Below are positions 10,555 through 24,079 of a stretch of DNA of 35,318 bases, one piece after another. Under the pieces are notes generated by a model, which was not told the origin of the DNA, ran no database searches, and saw nothing but the letters and a program-made list of their open reading frames with translations. The position numbers and the translations under genes were made by a program. Source of the stretch: a virus. The stretch is taken from IMG/VR virus record IMGVR_UViG_3300009423_000003; one strand, 5' to 3'. Position 1 is the stretch's first letter, and every line of letters begins with the position of its first letter.

Positions 10555-11361
10555 ATGGCCAAATATTTTATCTATCCAAACGCAAATCTTTATTCAGCAG
10601 ACCCAGTAGGGGGCGATCGTACAGGTAGTACTAACAATTTTGCTGTTAGTGCAAATGTAACGAATGAAACAAGGCTTACTGATGTTTCTATAGCTACGGC
10701 TGCAAGTATACCTCAGTATGATGCAGTGCGCTTTGACATGGGCGGAACAATAACAGCTATTAATGCAGTTGCAATTTATGTCAATGCAGTAAATACTAAC
10801 GATGTGCATTTTTTTAATAGTAGTAGCGCTACAACAGGGGCTTTTGGAGCCTCATCAAATGATGACACCTTTATTACTGGAACAAGCTATACTGATTTTA
10901 CATCAGTAGGTTGGCAAGTTAAAATAGACCTTGCAAATACTACTGCTGGAAATGCTGCAACACAACGCTATTTTTATATGTATGGAAATATAGCAACCCA
11001 AAGCACAATTACTGAAGTTATGATTGGAAACAAACTTGACTTAACTAACGTAAAGCTAACAGGTGCTGAAGGTATAAACTACGGCAATGACCTAATGGTA
11101 AGTCATGGTGGCAATGAGTTCTCTAATCAAAGACATGGTGGTAAGAAGTTCTGGAACTTTAGCCTGGGTCATTGTAGCTCTACATATAAAGCAAGCCTAG
11201 AGGCAATGCGTGAGGCAGTCGATGGCGCACATTATAAGTTTTTATATTACGATGGATCTGCTTATAATTATGTGCGGATGAGTGGTGATAGCTTACGATT
11301 TAAAGAAATTGCATATGGGGTCTACGATACTACCATTAAACTTACAGAGCAGTTAAGCTAA
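10555..11361 (+). CDS. Tail-associated protein (possible baseplate or receptor-binding component)
   Basis: 268-aa ORF that is the last gene of the tail operon. Its stop overlaps the integrase stop convergently. Confidence 0.45.
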   Translation: MAKYFIYPNANLYSADPVGGDRTGSTNNFAVSANVTNETRLTDVSIATAASIPQYDAVRFDMGGTITAINAVAIYVNAVNTNDVHFFNSSSATTGAFGASSNDDTFITGTSYTDFTSVGWQVKIDLANTTAGNAATQRYFYMYGNIATQSTITEVMIGNKLDLTNVKLTGAEGINYGNDLMVSHGGNEFSNQRHGGKKFWNFSLGHCSSTYKASLEAMREAVDGAHYKFLYYDGSAYNYVRMSGDSLRFKEIAYGVYDTTIKLTEQLS

Positions 11362-12455
11362 CTATAAAAAGAATTAACGATCATCTCTGATGATTTCTTC
11401 TTATCATCCCTAATCCAATCTGCATAAGCGTTCTCAGTATCTTTTACATTTGCATGGCCTAGATGCTCTTTGACCGCATAGATATTCCCTGATTCCCTTA
11501 ATAATATAGTTGCAGAAGTATCTCTCAGGTCATGGGGTGTGAATATAACACCAGATATCTTACTCGCTACAGTTATTCTACTGCGAATGCGTGTCTGGCT
11601 GATAGGTATAGGATATACATCAGCTTCATCGTGTGTCAGTTTAAAATAATCATTAATCTTTTTCAACAGCCTTTGATGATGGTCTTTAAGAAATGGTATC
11701 TCAAGCGGTTCATCAAACTCGCGCTTATGCCCTTTGTTTTTTATATAAGCCACTTCGCCCTCAACATCTATTTGTTCCCAGGTAAAGTCAGGCCTACATA
11801 ATTCACTTATGCGACATCCAGTTAATATATACAGCTCAATAATATTTTTAGTGATAGGACAGATATCTGGATGGTTAAATATAGAGTCTAATTGATGCTG
11901 TTTTAAGGCGTTCTTTTTACTCTTTATAGTCTTAGGTAGCTTAATTGGTTTTGCGTTGATTGTACCCCTAATTTTGCCCTCAGAAACCTGTTCCCTGGCC
12001 CAGTTTCCTATATGATTTAAGCATCGGAGTGCAGTAATGCCAGAGTTCTTCTTATCTGGGTTTCCGTAACGCTTGTAATAGAACTCATAATCTATTTTGC
12101 TAAAGTGTAAATCACTACCTAAATCATCTTCTAGCTTTTTCATTAAAGACGTGTAGCGCTTTACAGTTTTAGTCGCATACTGCTTATACGGTATAGCGTT
12201 AACAGTAAATGCCTTGAACACCATACCTATAGTAAGCTCTGGTACAGTAATGTTAACAGAATTTATCTTACCGTTAAGCTTACTGTTAATCCTGTCTCTT
12301 TCCTCTACTAATAAAGCATCATTATAGATAACATTAGCCTGGACTTTGTTATTAATTGTTATAGATCTATAGGGATTCTTATATAAATCCCTGTATCCCT
12401 CTGGGATATACTTAATTAAGTATTTATTGCTCTCTAATCTAGTAATTGTTGCCAT
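11358..12455 (-). CDS. int: Tyrosine recombinase / integrase
   Basis: Catalytic signature TGCRISEL (Arg I), HDLRDT (His-x-x-Arg) and LGHANVKDTENAY (His...Tyr). 365 aa. Confidence 0.9.
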   Translation of the reverse strand: MATITRLESNKYLIKYIPEGYRDLYKNPYRSITINNKVQANVIYNDALLVEERDRINSKLNGKINSVNITVPELTIGMVFKAFTVNAIPYKQYATKTVKRYTSLMKKLEDDLGSDLHFSKIDYEFYYKRYGNPDKKNSGITALRCLNHIGNWAREQVSEGKIRGTINAKPIKLPKTIKSKKNALKQHQLDSIFNHPDICPITKNIIELYILTGCRISELCRPDFTWEQIDVEGEVAYIKNKGHKREFDEPLEIPFLKDHHQRLLKKINDYFKLTHDEADVYPIPISQTRIRSRITVASKISGVIFTPHDLRDTSATILLRESGNIYAVKEHLGHANVKDTENAYADWIRDDKKKSSEMIVNSFYS

Positions 12456-12540
12456 ACTGGTTAAATCCTTTCGTCTTACAGAATAAAAAGTAATAATACA
12501 TATTACATTTATGCAAGGTATATTTTTGTAAAAAAACCCT

Positions 12541-12569
12541 TTGCATTTATATAGTAATTGTAATAAAAT
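12541..12569 (+). promoter_or_regulatory. Sigma70-type promoter candidate (TTGCAT-17 nt-TAAAAT)
   Basis: -35 at 12541-12546, a 17-nt spacer and -10 at 12564-12569, counted by hand. This argues that the GTG at 12570 is not the start. Confidence 0.5.
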
Positions 12570-18392: not shown

Positions 18393-19154
18393 ATGATAGA
18401 TAATGTGTTTAATTTATTTGAAAGCTATGTAAAAAACATAAGAAAGGCTAGTAAGCCTGGTAATTGGGTAGGCCTATGTCCTTTTCACGAAGAGAAAACA
18501 CCAAGCTTTTATTTTGATGAAGAGGGGCTATATAATTGTTTTGGCTGCAATACGAAGGGAAATGCGATAACTTTTGCAAAAGCGTTCGGAGAAGAGGCTC
18601 TAGAATTGCCCAAAATAGAGAGATCTAAACGTAAGGTGAAGGAATGGTCACCTCCAAAACCGCTAGATCCTCATAGATGGTTTGATGTATTAAATCAGGC
18701 CGTTGACAATTTACTGTTTAATTACGATGATATTGTAGGTGATTTTCCCTGGGATAAGCGTATTGTTAAGAAATTATACATAGGTTACGATGAAGGTACG
18801 TTCTTGTTTCCATATTTTAACCATGAGGGGCGCTTGGTCAACATAAAATGGCACAAAAAGAAACAGGTGACTGGTCACGCGACTACATATATCTATCCGA
18901 TGTGGCATATGCTCCGAAAATATAGAGGTGACAAGACATTGTATATTGTTGAAGGTGAAAAAGATTGTGTTTCTATGATTTCTAGTGGCAAACAGGCGAT
19001 ATCTTTTAGCAATGGAGCCAATTGCACCCCTGCGGATGAGTTATTGGGTATGGTTACAAGTAAATTTAGCGATATTTCGGTTATTTTTGATGATGATGAG
19101 GCAGGAAAGAAAGCGGAAGCTAAGATGATTGAGTATGGTAATGCCAAAGTTTAG
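18393..19154 (+). CDS. DNA primase (CHC2 zinc finger + TOPRIM), truncated within TOPRIM
   Basis: CPFHEEKTPSFYFDEEGLYNCFGC (CHC2). TOPRIM Glu YIVEGEKDC and DxD FDDDEAG. The ORF ends 15 codons after the DxD motif. Confidence 0.9.
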   Translation: MIDNVFNLFESYVKNIRKASKPGNWVGLCPFHEEKTPSFYFDEEGLYNCFGCNTKGNAITFAKAFGEEALELPKIERSKRKVKEWSPPKPLDPHRWFDVLNQAVDNLLFNYDDIVGDFPWDKRIVKKLYIGYDEGTFLFPYFNHEGRLVNIKWHKKKQVTGHATTYIYPMWHMLRKYRGDKTLYIVEGEKDCVSMISSGKQAISFSNGANCTPADELLGMVTSKFSDISVIFDDDEAGKKAEAKMIEYGNAKV

Positions 19155-20253
19155 AAAATCAGATATAGAATTGCAGAATGGGGAAGATTTGACCGATTTT
19201 TTACAGCGTAATGGTAAAATTACCGATGAAAAGGTAGTCAAGAACGGCACAAGTGTATTGCAGGGTATGGATATATGGGATACTCCAAGCCGAGATGTAG
19301 AGTGGGCGGTTAAGGATATGATTCCGATGCGTAAAAAGACAGTAGCTGTTGGTGATTTCGAGGCAGGGAAGAGCTATTTGTACCTGGGGGCAGCCTTATC
19401 TATTGCAGGAGGGAAGACTGGGTATATCGGATTTGAGATACCAAAGATGCGTAAAGTGTTGTATGTGGATCTAGAGAATGGTATCGATGAAACACTTGGC
19501 AGGATACGGAAGTTAACTGTTGGGCATCAGATTGATAAGTTAAAAGCATCAGATAATCTAACGCTTATTACGAAGCCAGGTGATTTTGAAGAGGTATTTC
19601 CGCTTATAGAGACACAAGTTTTAGTGCAAAAGCCAGATGTGATAATTATAGACAACCTCTATCAGCTTTCTGGCGCAAGTAATATATCGGATGCAGATAA
19701 GATAAAGCCGTTGTTGACTAAGATAGAGAGATTAAAGGAAAAGAGCGATGCTGCGCTAGTGGTGATACATCATTTTAACAAGAATACACAAGACCAGGGG
19801 GTTGCTGAAGAGAGAATGGCAGGGTCAAGTGTGCTTAATTGGTGGTATGAGCATTGTTTGCTTTTGTGTAAGACAAATCAAGACTTTAGTTTACTTGCGA
19901 TAGGCAAGAGTCGTATGGGTTCTAAGAATCCTGGAGTCTATGGTATAGAGATAAACGATCAACCACAAGGTGGTGTAGCGGTAGAGTGCGGTGGCCTGGT
20001 TTCTAGTGATAAGATCAAGGGTCTGGTCATTCCAGAGCCTCGCAAGACAAAGTGGGAGCATCACTTGAGTAGAATGGCGGATGATTTTGAGACATACGAG
20101 TGGTTAAATGTCTGTGGGGATACTCAGGATGACAAAGTGTCTGATGGTACAGCGCATAGGTGGTTAGGGGAGATGGCAGCGGTTGGAATAGTTAAAAAAT
20201 TGTCTCATGGTAGGTATAAAAAGACCAAAATGACCTTTTATGAGACAGATTAG
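19129..20253 (+). CDS. RecA-fold replicative helicase (RepA/DnaB-like) whose N-terminus carries the last TOPRIM motif
   Basis: N-terminus ...DIELQNGEDLTDFLQRNGK. Walker A GDFEAGKSY and Walker B PDVIIIDNL. Frame 1 opens right after TGA 19126-19128. Confidence 0.85.
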   Translation: MSMVMPKFRKSDIELQNGEDLTDFLQRNGKITDEKVVKNGTSVLQGMDIWDTPSRDVEWAVKDMIPMRKKTVAVGDFEAGKSYLYLGAALSIAGGKTGYIGFEIPKMRKVLYVDLENGIDETLGRIRKLTVGHQIDKLKASDNLTLITKPGDFEEVFPLIETQVLVQKPDVIIIDNLYQLSGASNISDADKIKPLLTKIERLKEKSDAALVVIHHFNKNTQDQGVAEERMAGSSVLNWWYEHCLLLCKTNQDFSLLAIGKSRMGSKNPGVYGIEINDQPQGGVAVECGGLVSSDKIKGLVIPEPRKTKWEHHLSRMADDFETYEWLNVCGDTQDDKVSDGTAHRWLGEMAAVGIVKKLSHGRYKKTKMTFYETD

Positions 20254-20449
20254 GCCTGGGGGGAGGGTATGAGAGTTTTGATAGTTTTGATAGTTTCAAG
20301 CCTCCAAACTCTCAATACTCTCAATACTAACGCACCCTCACTCCCTATTTTCTACCTTTTTAGTAGAATTTTTGGGAAAAACCCTCATTCAAACTCACAT
20401 TCAAACTATCATTACCCTTACCCTGTAGATATAAATATAAAAATACCCT
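20254..20449. repeat. Non-coding repeat field (candidate replication origin or regulatory region)
   Basis: Tandem 9-mers AGTTTTGAT x2 plus AGTTTCAAG (20274-20300). CTCAATACT x2 (20311-20328). CATTCAAACT x2 (20386-20407), which are roughly the reverse complement of the first set. Hairpin TTCTAC/GTAGAA. An iteron-like copy lies at 20413-20447. Confidence 0.45.
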
Positions 20450-20794
20450 ATGTCAGATAATATAGAAGACCCTTTAAGCAGTATTATAGATAAGTTAGAT
20501 CTGAAGTTGACTGACCCTTTGTCAGATGATATAAAAGAGTATCTAAGTGATAAGTATCATCATAATCAATGCAACTTAGGTAGGCCAGAGTTAGACTATT
20601 ATTGTATGTTAGCTTATAAAGATGAGAACGATAAGCTACTATGTGGTGCTATCTTAAATTGGTCAAAACATCTTCAGGTAGAGGGGCTGCGTAAGTGCTT
20701 CTTGCTTATGAAGTATGAGCATAAGTTGGCTGAAGCGAATCGTAGGCGCAAGGGTAACTTTACAGGTCCTAAACACAAGAAGCTTAATAGATAG
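20450..20794 (+). CDS. Hypothetical protein
   Basis: ORF track. No clear SD. Confidence 0.45.
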   Translation: MSDNIEDPLSSIIDKLDLKLTDPLSDDIKEYLSDKYHHNQCNLGRPELDYYCMLAYKDENDKLLCGAILNWSKHLQVEGLRKCFLLMKYEHKLAEANRRRKGNFTGPKHKKLNR

Positions 20795-20822
20795 TTACCC
20801 TTTCGATCTTATTATAAGATTT

Positions 20823-20975
20823 CTAAGCCTCACTCTCTTTTACAATATCCATATAGCAACCTGGAATATCATCGATACTAATTTTATTATTTTCCAAGTC
20901 TCCAATAATATTGTAAATATTCAAAGCTTCTTGCTCTAAAGCTTCTATGATTTTTGTTTTTTCGTTTATTATCAT
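20823..20975 (-). CDS. 50-aa hypothetical protein, not in the ORF track (MIINEKTKIIEALEQEALNIYNIIGDLENNKISIDDIPGCYMDIVKESEA)
   Basis: Translated by hand from the reverse complement. ATGA overlap with the stop of 20972..21193. Confidence 0.45.
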   Translation of the reverse strand: MIINEKTKIIEALEQEALNIYNIIGDLENNKISIDDIPGCYMDIVKESEA

Positions 20976-21193
20976 AGCTGCACCTCGCTTTCTTTTATTA
21001 ACTCAACTCGTTCGTTGTCGTATAAAGTCCAATCCACTTGATCACTACCCTCATCGCATTTATCCCAGGCGCTTATGCCTTTCATTACAGCCGAATTTTC
21101 AATATAATAACATCTACCCTTTATAGTGATATATAAAGAATCTTCTGATGTTATATTGACAATTACCCCCCTATGTTTTATTGTTTTACTCAT
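20972..21193 (-). CDS. Hypothetical 73-aa protein
   Basis: ORF track. SD context AACGAAAGGGTAATAAAATG. Confidence 0.6.
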   Translation of the reverse strand: MSKTIKHRGVIVNITSEDSLYITIKGRCYYIENSAVMKGISAWDKCDEGSDQVDWTLYDNERVELIKESEVQL

Positions 21194-21194
21194 T

Positions 21195-21326
21195 TTATTA
21201 CCCTTTCGTTATTAATATAAAAATCAATTATTACCCTTTATAGAATAATATAAAAATCAATTATTACCCTTTGTAGAATAATATAAAAATCAATTATTAC
21301 CCTTTGTAGAATAATATAAAAAATTA
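21195..21326. repeat. Four tandem 33-bp direct repeats (iteron-like)
   Basis: Units start at 21195, 21228, 21261 and 21294, with an exact 33-bp period. Consensus on the plus strand is TTATTACCCTTTGTAGAATAATATAAAAATCAA. The first unit is degenerate and the last is truncated at the stop of the upstream ORF. Confidence 0.9.
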
Positions 21327-21470
21327 AACCTGGTTTTGGTTAATTTTAACTTTTGAACGTCTTTTAATTTCGTTCTCGCATTGCCTTCTAAATGATATAG
21401 AATATTTTTTAATACCATATATGACAATTACAAGTTGTAAGCCGTTAAGCTGCGCAACGGTTTTATTCAT
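21324..21470 (-). CDS. 48-aa basic hypothetical protein, not in the ORF track (MNKTVAQLNGLQLVIVIYGIKKYSISFRRQCENEIKRRSKVKINQNQV)
   Basis: Translated by hand. SD AAAGAGGTTGATTTATG. Confidence 0.4.
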   Translation of the reverse strand: MNKTVAQLNGLQLVIVIYGIKKYSISFRRQCENEIKRRSKVKINQNQV

Positions 21471-21564
21471 AAATCAACCTCTTTAAATGTTAAAAAATAT
21501 TAACATAAAAATCCATACGCTCATGATAAATACAAGCGTAATAAATTCTTTAAATAATCTAAAT

Positions 21565-21786
21565 TTATTCATTTTCTAACCTGTTATTTAATGGATTAAA
21601 ATATTTGACTGTCTTCAGTATTTGCGACCAATTCGCTCCACTTTTAGCGCTTATTTTATAACGGCCGTCACTTTGCTTAGATACTTTAAAGTCGCTTAAT
21701 TTTTGTCCAAAAAAACGCATTGTATCATCGCTAAAAAAATAAGGTGCTGTTTTAAGTGTTCTCTCTTTTATTTCTTGTATAGTCAT
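21565..21786 (-). CDS. Hypothetical 73-aa protein
   Basis: ORF track. Its start context is supplied by conserved element copy 1. Confidence 0.6.
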   Translation of the reverse strand: MTIQEIKERTLKTAPYFFSDDTMRFFGQKLSDFKVSKQSDGRYKISAKSGANWSQILKTVKYFNPLNNRLENE

Positions 21787-21868
21787 TTTTAGATTCCTTT
21801 CGTTTTAACCTAAGACACTTCAACAGATCCGTTGAAGTGTTTCGTTCTTCTAAACTCTTTAGTTAGGG
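21784..21868 (-). promoter_or_regulatory. Conserved structured intergenic element, copy 1 (putative cis-regulatory RNA or processing site)
   Basis: The flanks are nearly identical to 22658..22740. 10-bp stem 21815-21824/21831-21840, a small 4-bp hairpin at 21844-21855 and closing CCTAA/TTAGG pairs. It ends in the SD and ATG of gene 21786<-21565. Confidence 0.7.
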
Positions 21869-21869
21869 T

Positions 21870-22472
21870 TTAATGAATTATAAGACCTACATTTTTCGTT
21901 GAATTATACCACCTGGTTGCATATAAATCGAATTCTGAGCTGTCCGTATAATTAGCTTTTTTCAATGCCTCAAGGCTCTCAAATATTTTTGCGTGCCTGT
22001 CCGTTTTTTGGTCAACGAATTTATTTTGCTTACCACTATCCGAAAATATAAAATCAAAATTAATTGGAATTGATTTTAAATTCTTAATCATGGTTATGTT
22101 ATTAGTGTAGGAATAGAATTTAACATCAGGATTATCTTGAGCAATTTGAAACCATTTTAAAAGATATTGTTTGCTGTAATAGTCGCCTGAATCGTGCACC
22201 CTGATATATTCGGCCTTCTTGTCTTTTATATCCTTATTCATAGCCTCAACAAAGTCATTTTTTAAAGTGGCTTTAAGTTTTAATTCCATCCACTTAGACG
22301 CCATTTTGTACATACCTTTTTGAGCATAACAAAATTTAATACAGGCGTCCGCCATTGGACAAGTTACCATACCACTTTTAGATTTATAGGCAGGAATTGA
22401 AAAATTATACAGGCGTACATTAAAATGTTTACCTGTCTTTTTTATCTTGCTGTTTTGTGTCAATAAGTTCAT
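21870..22472 (-). CDS. GP88-like domain protein (Cys cluster CPMADACIKFCYA, HDSGD motif), function unknown
   Basis: The pattern TCP...C...CYA ... vHDSGDyys ... FYsYT matches my recollection of the phage gene-product-88 family. Confidence 0.6.
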   Translation of the reverse strand: MNLLTQNSKIKKTGKHFNVRLYNFSIPAYKSKSGMVTCPMADACIKFCYAQKGMYKMASKWMELKLKATLKNDFVEAMNKDIKDKKAEYIRVHDSGDYYSKQYLLKWFQIAQDNPDVKFYSYTNNITMIKNLKSIPINFDFIFSDSGKQNKFVDQKTDRHAKIFESLEALKKANYTDSSEFDLYATRWYNSTKNVGLIIH

Positions 22473-22660
22473 TATTTACCTCTCTTTTCAAATGACAACT
22501 CAGAGCGCAGCTTACACGCTTCTAATATAGCGCTAACATCCTCTAATATACTTTCGTCTGTGTAGTCATTGCCCGTTGCATAAATTTCAGATGTTAAAAA
22601 TTCCTCAATTAATTGTAGCGAGTGGTATTGTTCATGTGTTATGGTAATTGATTTATTCAT
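22472..22660 (-). CDS. Small acidic protein (paralog of 22735..22932)
   Basis: ITHEQYHSLQLIEEFLTSEIYATG aligns without gaps to ISKKECNALAEIRDHINGCIYENG in the neighbouring gene. Confidence 0.6.
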   Translation of the reverse strand: MNKSITITHEQYHSLQLIEEFLTSEIYATGNDYTDESILEDVSAILEACKLRSELSFEKRGK

Positions 22661-22740
22661 TTTAGATTTCCTTTCGTTTTAACCTAAGACCCTCTACAGA
22701 TCTGTAGAGGGTTTCGTTCTTTCGAACTCTTCAGTTAGGA
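22658..22740 (-). promoter_or_regulatory. Conserved structured intergenic element, copy 2
   Basis: Perfect 24-bp palindrome 22689-22712 (ACCCTCTACAGATCTGTAGAGGGT), GTTC-GAAA-GAAC hairpin and the same flanks as copy 1. Its 5' (sense) end overlaps the stop codon of 22735..22932. Confidence 0.7.
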
Positions 22741-22932
22741 TTTTTTAACTTCAATCCATTTTTTAATTAAGCCGTTTAAAGTTTCCGAAAGCTCATAGTC
22801 ATCAAATTCTATTTGGCCTGCCTCTTTCATTTCGTCTTCAAATCCATTCTCATAAATACAGCCGTTAATATGGTCTCTAATTTCGGCTAAAGCGTTACAT
22901 TCTTTTTTGCTAATTTTAATTTTTCTACTCAT
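22735..22932 (-). CDS. Small acidic protein (paralog of 22472..22660)
   Basis: ORF track. Its ATG lies 2 nt downstream of the stop of the upstream gene (22934..23407). Confidence 0.6.
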   Translation of the reverse strand: MSRKIKISKKECNALAEIRDHINGCIYENGFEDEMKEAGQIEFDDYELSETLNGLIKKWIEVKKS

Positions 22933-22933
22933 T

Positions 22934-23407
22934 TTAATTTCTTTCCTTTATTTTTTTAATTAGTTTATAATCATCATCCTCAAAAACTATATGCTCTTCA
23001 ATCTTATGAATTAGAAAATATTCAGTAGGTAATTGATTCTTTTTATTAACTTCTGTCCAATATTCTCTTTCAAGCTTTAAAGACTTTTTAGTTCTTTTAA
23101 ATGGATTTTCTTTAGTCTTTAATCCATAAGCCGTTAGCGTGTATTTACCGTCCTTATTTTTTTTAATTCTAGGCTTATCGCATTTATAACTTGATGCCCC
23201 AAACTTTAATAGAACTAAATTAGTATTTCCGTAACCTTGATAGTCTGTTCTAGTCCTCCACTTATCATTCTTAAATTCTTTAGTGATTTCATAAAACCCT
23301 TTATTGTTAAGCTTAACAGATTTTAAAAGCCTATTCATATCTGAATATTTTAACGGCTCTTTCTCTAGCCAATTCATTAAAAAAGTATATTTATTTTTAT
23401 GTTTCAT
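22934..23407 (-). CDS. Hypothetical basic 157-aa protein, first gene of the minus-strand island
   Basis: The start was moved to Met16 of the track ORF (MKHKNKY...). It has a strong SD (AGAAGGAAATACTATG) and lies downstream of the predicted promoter. Confidence 0.55.
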   Translation of the reverse strand: MKHKNKYTFLMNWLEKEPLKYSDMNRLLKSVKLNNKGFYEITKEFKNDKWRTRTDYQGYGNTNLVLLKFGASSYKCDKPRIKKNKDGKYTLTAYGLKTKENPFKRTKKSLKLEREYWTEVNKKNQLPTEYFLIHKIEEHIVFEDDDYKLIKKIKERN

Positions 23408-23443
23408 AGTATTTCCTTCTATTTGTTTGCTTGTCATGGTTAT

Positions 23444-23472
23444 ATAATACACAATAATTATATTAAATGCAA
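23444..23472 (-). promoter_or_regulatory. Sigma70-type promoter candidate for the minus-strand island (TTGCAT-17 nt-TATTAT)
   Basis: In minus sense, the -35 TTGCAT is the complement of 23467-23472. A 17-nt spacer follows, and the -10 TATTAT is the complement of 23444-23449. Confidence 0.45.
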
Positions 23473-23701
23473 TACTTTATATTACATTAACTATCAATAA
23501 CACCTTATATATATATATTTTTTGAGTGCGTCCAATCAAACACACTAAGCCGAGAAAAGCTATTTACGATTTTTACGATTGAATTTGCGTATTATCTACC
23601 GATTATATATTTTTGCCTCAATGGTATGCGAACAAATGAATCTATTTAAATCAAAACCTGGTTTTTTATCGTGAATAAAGCCGAGCCACAAGGACAGTTT
23701 T

Positions 23702-23767: not shown

Positions 23768-24079
23768 ATGGACTGGCCAATAATCACCGAAGCTGACTAC
23801 GAAAGACTCATCGAATCCATCGATCTCGGTGACGAGTTCTTTCGCAAACTAGCGATCTTCCGCTCTGGACTCATCGAGCCACATATGAGGCATTGGCAAC
23901 TCTCGGCTCACGAGGCCTACGATAAACTATCTGAGCGTGAACTTCAGGTCTTCAAGATGCGCTTAAAATCACACAGCTTCCCACTCATAGCAGAAAACCT
24001 GGAAATATCTGAATCATCAGCTAAAACCTACTGGCGCAGAGCCATACGCAAGTGTTGGGTTCTATTTGATGTAGTCTAA
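23768..24079 (+). CDS. Sigma-70 region-4 / LuxR-like HTH protein (candidate late regulator)
   Basis: LSERELQVFKMRLKSHSFPLIAENLEISESSAKTYWRRAIRK resembles ECF sigma region 4.2. Confidence 0.6.
   Translation: MDWPIITEADYERLIESIDLGDEFFRKLAIFRSGLIEPHMRHWQLSAHEAYDKLSERELQVFKMRLKSHSFPLIAENLEISESSAKTYWRRAIRKCWVLFDVV

Follow-up and report, generated by a model that had tools for sequence, protein, structure and literature searches.

What is the role of a short tandem array that lies ahead of a small gene, beside the replication genes, in the genome of an uncultured phage? A first-pass annotation had likened this array (21195-21326) to iteron origins with a second, distant cluster, such as P4 ori/crr, or else to an amplified translation-initiation region. 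We surveyed the motif carried by the array in the window (i.e. the whole stretch of 35,318 nucleotides analysed here) and in its relatives. The motif most likely serves to turn transcription on or off, and not as a second replication origin.

The window looks like the genome of a temperate tailed phage of about 35 kb. Genes of a DnaG-type primase (18393-19154) and an AAA_25 helicase (19129-20253) are followed, directly past the helicase stop, by a field of short repeats that is the probable replication origin. A block of small minus-strand genes extends over 20823-23452 and, past it, are found the genes of a 103-aa sigma-70-region-4 protein (23768-24079), the terminase, portal and capsid proteins, and the fibre and tail genes. 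A T7-gp2.5-like SSB, nucleases and a methyltransferase are also encoded, and the ORF 11358-12455 (minus strand) was taken for a putative integrase by its position only. Near and distant DNA searches of a cultured-phage collection returned nothing similar to the window, and its terminase is at most about 33 % identical to those of isolates. No prophage relative was found in two scans of species-representative genomes; one 498-kb contig with a 47 %-identical terminase carried a terminase-portal remnant only and lacked the motif. Relatives were obtained largely from ocean metagenomes, TARA Oceans included.

Structure of the array and copies of its motif in the window

The features of the region are given below (coordinates, strand, description).

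20270-20413, unstranded: probable replication origin, with inverted 9-mer sets (TGATAGTTT x3, ACTCTCAAT x2.3) and 12-mers (TCATTCAAACTA x2.4)
20354-20380, minus strand: degenerate motif copy within the origin region, with an intact counterpart in the relatives L008 (at 6233) and L015
20414-20534, minus strand: origin-proximal cluster of four to five motif copies (20414/20420-20440, 20445-20465, 20469-20489, 20514-20534)
20450-20794, plus strand: gene of a 114-aa protein with four invariant cysteines (Cys4) and a basic tail, conserved beside the origin in phage groups G1-G3, with motif copies on both sides
20797-20817, minus strand: single motif copy (TTATAATAAGATCGAAAGGGT), directly past the stop of the plus-strand Cys4 gene, at a homology breakpoint
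20823-20975, minus strand: 50-aa gene, in ATGA overlap with the stop of the 73-aa gene and without a motif of its own
20972-21193, minus strand: 73-aa gene headed by the array, with homologues 72-77 % identical in relatives
21116-21136, minus strand: single motif copy within the 73-aa gene (TTATATATCACTATAAAGGGT), kept in relatives and coinciding with a homology breakpoint
21195-21326, minus strand: tandem array of four 33-bp units in register (Tandem Repeats Finder score 219)
21200-21220, minus strand: gene-proximal motif copy of the array, TTATATTAATAACGAAAGGGT
21233-21253, minus strand: motif copy 3, TTATATTATTCTATAAAGGGT
21266-21286, minus strand: motif copy 2, TTATATTATTCTACAAAGGGT
21299-21319, minus strand: motif copy 1, the most upstream in minus sense, TTATATTATTCTACAAAGGGT
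21324-21470, minus strand: 48-aa ORF between terminator and array, a doubtful gene
21516-21540, minus strand: terminator-like hairpin and T run, about 190 nt upstream of the array in minus sense

Tandem Repeats Finder delimited the array at 21195-21322 (period 33, 3.9 copies, 93 % matches, score 219) and, together with the repeat register, bore out the four 33-bp units described earlier, which start at 21195, 21228, 21261 and 21294. On the minus strand, each unit consists of a linker (AATAATTGATTT), an AT box (TTATATT), a spacer of 9-10 nt and an AGGGT box, and the codon-wise reading that had been proposed for it (TTG ATT TTT ATA TTA TTC TAC AAA GGG TAA TAA) was found to be right. So was the single-base difference between units: counted from the gene, units 3 and 4 are identical and unit 2 carries TAT for TAC (minus sense). 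The first unit, which adjoins the gene, has a diverged spacer (AATAACGAA), and its AAAGGGT lies 6 nt 5' of the ATG at 21193; as the first-pass annotation had stated, the array thus ends in the ribosome-binding site of the gene running from 21193 to 20972. That the array is in frame with the stop of the upstream ORF is a trivial consequence of 33 nt being 11 codons. The 48-aa ORF that separates array and terminator (21324-21470) had no family match, and a homologue was absent from the 28 further motif-bearing contigs tested.

The 21-nt bipartite motif contained in every unit (TTATAW-N10-AGGGT, minus-strand reading) has nine matches in the window, every one on the minus strand between 20414 and 21319 and none elsewhere, while 100 dinucleotide-preserving shuffles of the window gave a chance expectation of 0.02 (sd 0.14). 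Two more copies have a C in place of the initial T. Four copies belong to the array, one lies within the 73-aa gene, one at 20797-20817 (with no minus-strand gene behind it), four to five are origin-proximal and one is degenerate. The origin-proximal cluster is directed at the origin and overlaps the 5' end of the plus-strand Cys4 gene. The looser copies noticed earlier at about 20420 are real members of the motif (20420-20440, 20445-20465, 20469-20489), and the motif does, as had been reported, form two clusters beside the primase and helicase genes, some 0.8 kb from each other; the copy placed at about 20350 is degenerate in the window and intact only in relatives (L008 and L015). Copies at 20514-20534, 20797-20817 and 21116-21136 add to that earlier list.

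The repeats of the probable origin are of another kind. Its 9-mers, of form TGNNAGT, occupy 20270-20328 and its 12-mers 20385-20413, and neither occurs within 21195-21326. The corresponding field of relatives consists of two clean 9-mer sets, inverted to one another (e.g. 2x ATTGATAGT then 3x AAACTATCA), the 9-mers of which differ from one relative to another (GATAGT, GAGAGT, GTTAGT, GAAGTAAGT, AGTATCAAT) while the array motif is unchanged.

Conservation, polarity and contexts of the motif in relatives

Relatives were collected via the 73-aa protein, via the helicase and by a scan for two tandem units. At least 120 matching stretches, most but not all of this phage family, were retrieved from public metagenomes; the loose pattern used in the metagenome scan also gave unrelated tandem repeats that fitted by chance. 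Among 170 related contigs or loci with at least two copies (1.1 Mb), 1009 copies were found on one strand and 0 on the opposite one, the motif strand being always that of the neighbouring small genes. All copies sit in the stretch that leads from the origin to the packaging genes. In those helicase relatives that reach past the helicase gene, the motif was present only on the strand opposite to it, 0.1-2.9 kb downstream of the helicase stop. What was observed directly is the motif itself, along with its polarity, where it stands and how it is conserved.

Arrays comprise 2-7 units (copy number overall 1-7), with periods of 22-26 or 32-33 bp. Adjacent copies are most often 24 nt apart, start to start (95 cases), then 23 (46), 25 (45) and 26 (16), and a minority type, with a longer linker (AATAAYTGATYT), shows 33 (15 cases) or 32 (9). 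The 33-bp period of the window is a local variant with this longer linker, the usual tandem period being 23-25 bp; the argument for phasing by three helical turns, which had been drawn from the window alone, fails for this reason. A comparison of copy number in relatives, also called for by the first-pass annotation, thus recovered a conserved motif in arrays of varying length.

A position matrix was anchored on GGGT alone in the arrays, leaving the AT box unforced. The AT box emerged nonetheless (T-17 97 %, T-16 100 %, A-15 97 %, T-14 100 %, A-13 100 %, T-12 100 %, T-11 81 % with C 13 %), followed by a free spacer, C or A at -2, A-1 in 100 % and then GGGT. Neither the boxes nor the distance between them change, whereas spacer sequence, period and copy number are free to vary; selection therefore acts on the unit and not on the geometry of the array.

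Four phage groups carry the motif: G1, i.e. that of the window, with split primase and helicase; G2 and G3, with a fused primase-helicase only 24-40 % identical to the proteins of the window; and G4, of 20-32 % G+C and another genome layout, with a DnaD-type replication-initiator gene. Common to G1-G3 are the 103-aa sigma-region-4 protein, which co-occurs with the motif in these groups, the terminase and the small Cys4 protein beside the origin. G4 contigs, which are partial, share with the window only the terminase, portal, capsid and a DUF7447-like protein; neither the sigma-region-4 protein nor the Cys4 protein was found in them.

The contexts of the motif fall at gene starts, past terminators and beside the origin. 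Thirty-six unique copies lie 5-6 nt 5' of the ATG of unrelated small genes, with the consensus TTTATAWT-WAMWAMG-AAAGGGT-AAnAAA-ATG. When an ATG-led ORF of at least 35 codons was sought at 3-8 nt, these represented 36 of 491 unique contexts (about 7 %), the other 455 preceding no gene. A -10-like hexamer (TATATT or TATAAT) is present in the units, its T, A, T, A, T being 97-100 % conserved, and its last position is T in 34 of the 36 gene-proximal copies. TATAAT was found in 13 of the 36 proximal copies vs 17 of the 455 distal ones (Fisher p = 1e-8). The would-be -7 position is C in about 11 % of distal units, and the core TTATAT is invariant. The units have no conserved -35 hexamer at 16-18 bp and no TG extension, and a promoter consensus scan gave only weak TTTATA-16-AATAAT matches.

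Arrays of G2, G3 and G4 begin 2-150 nt past strong intrinsic terminators, first units abutting the GC-rich terminator stems. In the relative L066, one array occupies the entire interval from the terminator to the SD/ATG of the next operon, so that any promoter there must lie inside the array. In G4, a single unit pair about 85 nt past a terminator lies directly upstream, at about -47 to -91, of a canonical promoter (TTGGAT or TTGCAT -17- TATACT) that heads an operon with replication genes. In all G1-G3 genomes examined, copies separate the 9-mer field from the Cys4 gene or lie shortly beyond the latter; they are directed into the origin, antisense to the Cys4 gene and without an ORF behind them. 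Only origin-proximal copies are left in L080, the minus-strand genes of which form a tight overlapping operon without copies inside. Some arrays precede a separate canonical AGGAG, and in L008 the last unit lacks both boxes, yet the SD of the gene is kept. Finally, the breakpoints of homology between the window and the relatives nearest to it (20798, 21140 and 21190/21262) all fall on motif copies, and the gene-proximal 33-nt unit is common to the window and L006, in which upstream units and downstream genes differ.

Candidate functions of the unit

Units that stand after terminators and before genes, that are co-directional with them, portable, and absent where genes overlap fit best with a transcription-control element. 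The reading that we prefer, at a rough probability of 0.45 (i.e. a little short of an even chance), is that of a lineage-specific promoter/leader cassette, stacked by slippage and also used as a recombination joint. The array would then be a four-fold local amplification of a one-directional cis-regulatory unit, (G-R-T-Y)TTTATAWT - 9 nt - AGGGT, on the minus strand. The host RNA polymerase would use its AT box like a -10, with no -35 element involved, and transcription would start at, or just ahead of, the invariant A of AGGGT. The leader would begin at or near AGGGU and, where a unit abuts a gene, AGGGT would be the Shine-Dalgarno sequence, 5-6 nt before the ATG. Units would be put ahead of small accessory-gene cassettes in the variable region from the origin to the packaging genes, those on the origin side firing into the origin, antisense to the small Cys4 gene. 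Arrays of 2-7 units would arise through slippage or unequal crossing-over, and the units may double as joints for cassette exchange. At 21195-21326, four stacked copies would drive the 73-aa and 50-aa genes past the upstream terminator. We infer promoter activity, as well as the start site and a possible requirement for an auxiliary factor.

Several observations argue for the promoter/leader cassette. The polarity is absolute (1009 vs 0) and follows the strand of the adjacent small genes; arrays come after terminators (in G2-G4, in L066 and at 21516-21540 in the window); and 36 unique copies precede the ATG of unrelated genes by the same 5-6 nt. Gene-proximal copies are closer to TATAAT than distal ones, and a pyrimidine followed by the invariant A is found about as far from the AT box as a start site plausibly would be. 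Boxes and spacing are constant, period and copy number being free. Portability points the same way (the differing genes behind the unit shared with L006, the breakpoints on motif copies), as does the tight operon of L080, devoid of internal copies and with only the origin-proximal ones kept. Viral intergenic repeats proven to be promoters offer precedents, i.e. the PeSLs (PMC2839356) and the repeats of halovirus HF2 (PMC8707807).

Other observations fit this reading less well. The units lack a -35 and a TG extension while the promoter-like sequences of G4 have the canonical -35/17/-10 arrangement, and a helper factor may therefore be required. The sigma-70 holoenzyme is not known to recognise a box such as AGGGT, invariant and set at a constant distance past the -10. 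Nor does it fit well that about 11 % of distal units have C at what would be -7, next to an invariant TTATAT; seven promoters 24 bp apart could not be occupied simultaneously; and the proximal enrichment in TATAAT may partly reflect the shared ancestry of a few leader families. The missing -35 and TG, the invariant AGGGT and the C at -7 weigh toward a second reading, in which the units are polar operators.

According to this alternative, which we consider rather unlikely but the most serious, a sequence-specific protein of phage or host origin would recognise the bipartite unit of 21 bp, either as a monomer with two domains or as a filament formed cooperatively, would repress, block or activate the cassettes, and would act at the origin too, in the manner of stoperators or of Cox/Xis-type direct repeats. 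The rigid geometry, with two invariant boxes at one spacing around a free spacer, speaks for such a protein, and the arrays, of 2-7 units repeated every 23-25 bp, look like those on which proteins bind cooperatively. Absolute polarity relative to transcription is a further point in its favour, and the G4 units, at about -47 to -91, occupy a typical activator or repressor position. A monomeric two-domain repressor acting on an asymmetric site is known (PMC9283540). In G1-G3, the conserved basic-tailed Cys4 protein, encoded between motif clusters, would be a candidate binder; it has no PDB, Pfam, PHROG or NCBIfam match, and its AlphaFold model (pLDDT 50) is too poor for use. The 103-aa sigma-region-4 protein was considered as a binder too; it accompanies the motif in G1-G3, but no counterpart was found among the partial G4 contigs. 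Against polar operators, no candidate binder is common to all four groups (among partial contigs), the sites are confined to 3 kb at most, unlike genome-wide stoperators, and the array of L066 leaves no room for another promoter between terminator and gene. Promoter and operator can be combined in one model, that of a factor-dependent promoter.

The 21-bp unit could also be the docking site of a dedicated factor, the array coupling origin firing to the expression of accessory cassettes, which seems unlikely. The Cys4 basic-tailed protein is one candidate factor and a T7-gp4-like primase-helicase another; the T7-gp4 primase-helicase family reads GGGT-type sites. If this docking-site reading were true, the motif would unite the roles of iteron, polar operator and ribosome-binding site, and an abundant lineage of marine phages would have a single regulon built on it.

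The analogy with P4 that had been drawn from the window leads to a further reading, in which the helicase, or some other initiator, would bind the units and so control firing or copy number, the units being replication iterons or else an enhancer of the origin (like P4 crr or P1 incA). P4 ori/crr and plasmid iterons are direct repeats of one orientation with a second, distant cluster and a helicase-primase that has a C-terminal DNA-binding domain, and P4 crr carries the same iterons as ori. The likeness lies in the single-orientation direct repeats, in a cluster apart from the origin and in the helicase-primase. The origin-proximal copies are the most conserved in location, retained even in L080, all copies share one orientation at an iteron-like period, and the C-terminal winged-helix-like segment of the helicase is, like the motif, nearly invariant among relatives. 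The recognition helix of that segment showed no co-variation with the origin 9-mers. Unlike in P4, the array motif differs from the origin repeats: the 9-mers and 12-mers of the origin are missing from the array, and the 9-mers change between relatives while the motif stays constant. The motif is moreover independent of the type of replication module, being found with the unrelated DnaD-type one, and many copies stand exactly 5-6 nt before the start codons of unrelated small genes and move with those genes. On these grounds the P4 analogy is not supported and iterons are very unlikely.

Just as improbable is a purely translational role, whereby the unit would be an RNA leader made of an AU-rich enhancer and an SD-like AGGGU, offering ribosomes standby sites, or a translational regulator its targets, and the array an amplified initiation region. 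AGGGT does occupy the SD position in 36 unique copies, and the proximal leader (UUAUAUUAAUAACGAAAGG) is similar to the one that hammerhead cleavage leaves elsewhere in the same gene block (UUAGGUUAAAACGAAAGG). The 9-codon TTG mini-ORF that the first-pass annotation had proposed, however, exists only with the window's version of the spacer and is missing from the arrays of relatives, and 455 of the 491 unique contexts have no gene behind them. Arrays just past terminators, or antisense to a gene and aimed into the origin, are likewise at odds with a translation leader, as are the separate canonical AGGAG after some arrays and the SD kept in L008 though the last unit lost both boxes. No Rfam match was found over the array at E <= 5 (hits in the region were the hammerhead at 22683-22762 and weak chance matches), the units have no stem-loop, and no RNA fold signal was detected at the array on either strand (z = -0.5 and +1.7), on which grounds a structured RNA or ribozyme was rejected as well.

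That the array is a neutral by-product, i.e. that recent replication slippage of the promoter/RBS region of the 73-aa gene left extra, idle copies, is suggested by the near identity of units 2-4 and by copy numbers that differ among close relatives, but is extremely unlikely given boxes invariant at a fixed spacing between randomised spacers across diverged phages, and arrays kept at equivalent places in all four groups.

Other candidates were rejected. A plus-strand promoter would have only 11-12 nt between ACCCT and TATAAA, which is too short for a -35/-10 pair. As to a promoter for a single-subunit phage RNA polymerase, one copy (ATCACTATAAAGGGTAGA) has the look of a T7/T3 promoter, but the spacer is not conserved and the window has no polymerase gene, its large ORFs encoding a tape-measure-like protein, a fibre and a third protein of unknown function. 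The likeness to a CRISPR-like repeat was limited to a single copy, a weak chance match (21 bits, E = 1.4), and attP arm sites or a pac site do not suit the location, int being 9 kb and terS about 3 kb away.

Known repeated phage elements and significance of the motif

No description of this motif was found in the literature searched, and we compared it to four repeated viral elements. The promoter-early stem-loops (PeSLs) of T4-type phages, which associate a sigma-70 promoter with a terminator stem-loop and are not tandem (PMC2839356, PMC4122927), are likewise short conserved cassettes, co-oriented and repeated among small non-essential genes of a hyperplastic region, and both elements are located at the junctions of insertions, deletions or replacements between close relatives. 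Our motif differs from them by the lack of a -35 and of a stem-loop in the unit, the terminators being separate and upstream, and by its invariant downstream AGGGT, its tandem arrays of up to 7 units and its copies at the replication origin. The SAS/ESAS of Cluster K mycobacteriophages are 13-mers with a canonical AGGAG, virtually all of them start-associated (PMC3203893). They share with our motif an asymmetric sequence, a single orientation, a restriction to the non-structural part of the genome and a place ahead of unrelated genes, 3-8 nt before start codons and over the SD position. In contrast, only about 7 % of unique motif copies are start-associated, the rest being mostly tandem or at the origin, and the motif has two parts, one of which is an AT box.

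Cluster A stoperators, 13-bp sites spread over the whole genome and with a known repressor (PMC9283540, PMC6550527), resemble the motif as asymmetric sites in short intergenic gaps, with one orientation relative to transcription. Motif sites are instead tandem and gathered within 3 kb at most (20414-21319 in the window), G4 having a single pair at an early promoter, and no binder or repressor candidate is shared across the motif groups among the contigs compared, those of G4 being partial. The intergenic repeats of halovirus HF2, shown to be promoters by reporter assays (PMC8707807), are also conserved and AT-rich, but belong to an archaeal virus with its own promoter architecture, and these 29- and 58-bp repeats do not form tandem arrays. 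As the motif shares features with PeSLs, SAS, stoperators and the HF2 repeats, and lacks at least one defining feature of each, we place it as a variant among repeated phage regulatory cassettes.

The function proposed for the motif is read from its genomic context. The motif itself marks a widespread lineage of uncultured marine phages, with at least 120 matching stretches, many of them in TARA Oceans or other ocean samples. It provides a sequence handle to locate the boundaries of accessory cassettes, to follow cassette shuffling and to test a regulatory element that is unusual in having no -35 and an invariant downstream box, in being absolutely polar and tandem-stackable, and in occurring both at gene starts and at the replication origin. 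If the units are protein-binding sites, they would define a new polar operator system; if they are promoters, they would widen the mobile-cassette idea derived from PeSLs to temperate marine siphophage-like viruses.

Repeats of the probable origin and the adjacent Cys4 gene

The probable replication origin follows the helicase stop and, in several relatives carrying the motif (i.e. the 21-nt bipartite unit TTATAW-N10-AGGGT, minus strand), its inverted 9-mers could be compared together with the neighbouring gene.

20270-20413: origin field, inverted 9-mer sets (in relatives, e.g. L006 6120-6290, L064 3870-3945 and L080 5180-5370)
20450-20794, plus strand: 114-aa protein with four invariant Cys and a basic C-terminal tail (Cys4 protein)

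Central bases of the origin 9-mers vary among relatives (TGATAGT, TGAGAGT, TGTTAGT, GAAGTAAGT and AGTATCAAT), and the recognition helix at the helicase C terminus, TA[HY]RWL[GK]E, is nearly constant despite these differing 9-mers. Directly past the origin, the Cys4 gene is kept in three of the motif-carrying phage groups (G1, that of the window, to G3). Its product, in which C41, C52, C65, C83 and W71 are invariant, showed no match to any known family. Roughly the first 35 codons of the gene are motif repeats read from the opposite strand (DPLS..I.. repeated), and this motif-derived N-terminal part is absent from G2 homologues.

A helix-turn-helix protein next to terS and an isolated terminase-portal pair

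23768-24079, plus strand: 103-aa protein made up entirely of a sigma-70 region 4 / GerE-type helix-turn-helix
L077 10001-12582 (498-kb JGI contig): terminase-portal pair, terminase 47 % identical

The gene for the 103-aa protein lies just 5' of terS and its product, 49-99 % identical across G1-G3, is possibly a late-gene activator. The L077 pair, at a locus where no motif was found, is isolated among cellular genes, one of which codes for a protein with a CHU_C domain. The pair is probably what is left of a prophage and offers no firm clue to the host.

Motif-like and unrelated sequences

12535-12553, minus strand: motif-like TATATAAATGCAAAGGGT with a shorter spacer (N8)
11358-12455, minus strand: presumed integrase gene
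21326-21337 and 23653-23664: near-palindrome AAACCTGGTTTT

TATATAAATGCAAAGGGT is located about 80 nt 5' of the presumed integrase gene start, in the intergenic region ahead of the first early gene, and may be due to chance. One AAACCTGGTTTT site lies at the upstream edge of the array (four motif units, 21195-21326), the other in the divergent region that precedes the packaging genes. A separate family, unrelated to the motif and retrieved solely because its sequence satisfies the loose search pattern, consists of a pair of 23-bp direct repeats, CGATATATTAYCGATGATAGGGT, which often follows a (TA)n run. It was found at metagenome loci L087, L091, L115, L127, L128, L133, L137, L148, L153, L169, L179, L187, L188 and L192; in L148 and L192 the pair is present twice, ~3.2 kb apart.

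Ribozyme matches and a natural control for the motif

22683-22762 and 21784-21870, minus strand: hammerhead (RAGATH-1-like) ribozyme matches, 38.7 bits, below the gathering score
L080 5171-8606: region of a G1-like TARA/ENA contig with a minus-strand operon

Both hammerhead matches are intergenic, within the same minus-strand block as the array-headed genes, and the leader left after cleavage, UUAGGUUAAAACGAAAGG, is similar to the gene-proximal motif leader UUAUAUUAAUAACGAAAGG. The minus-strand genes of L080 form a single, tightly overlapping operon. Since no motif copy occurs within it and only two are retained, both adjoining the origin, L080 provides a natural control for the association of the motif with cassette boundaries.
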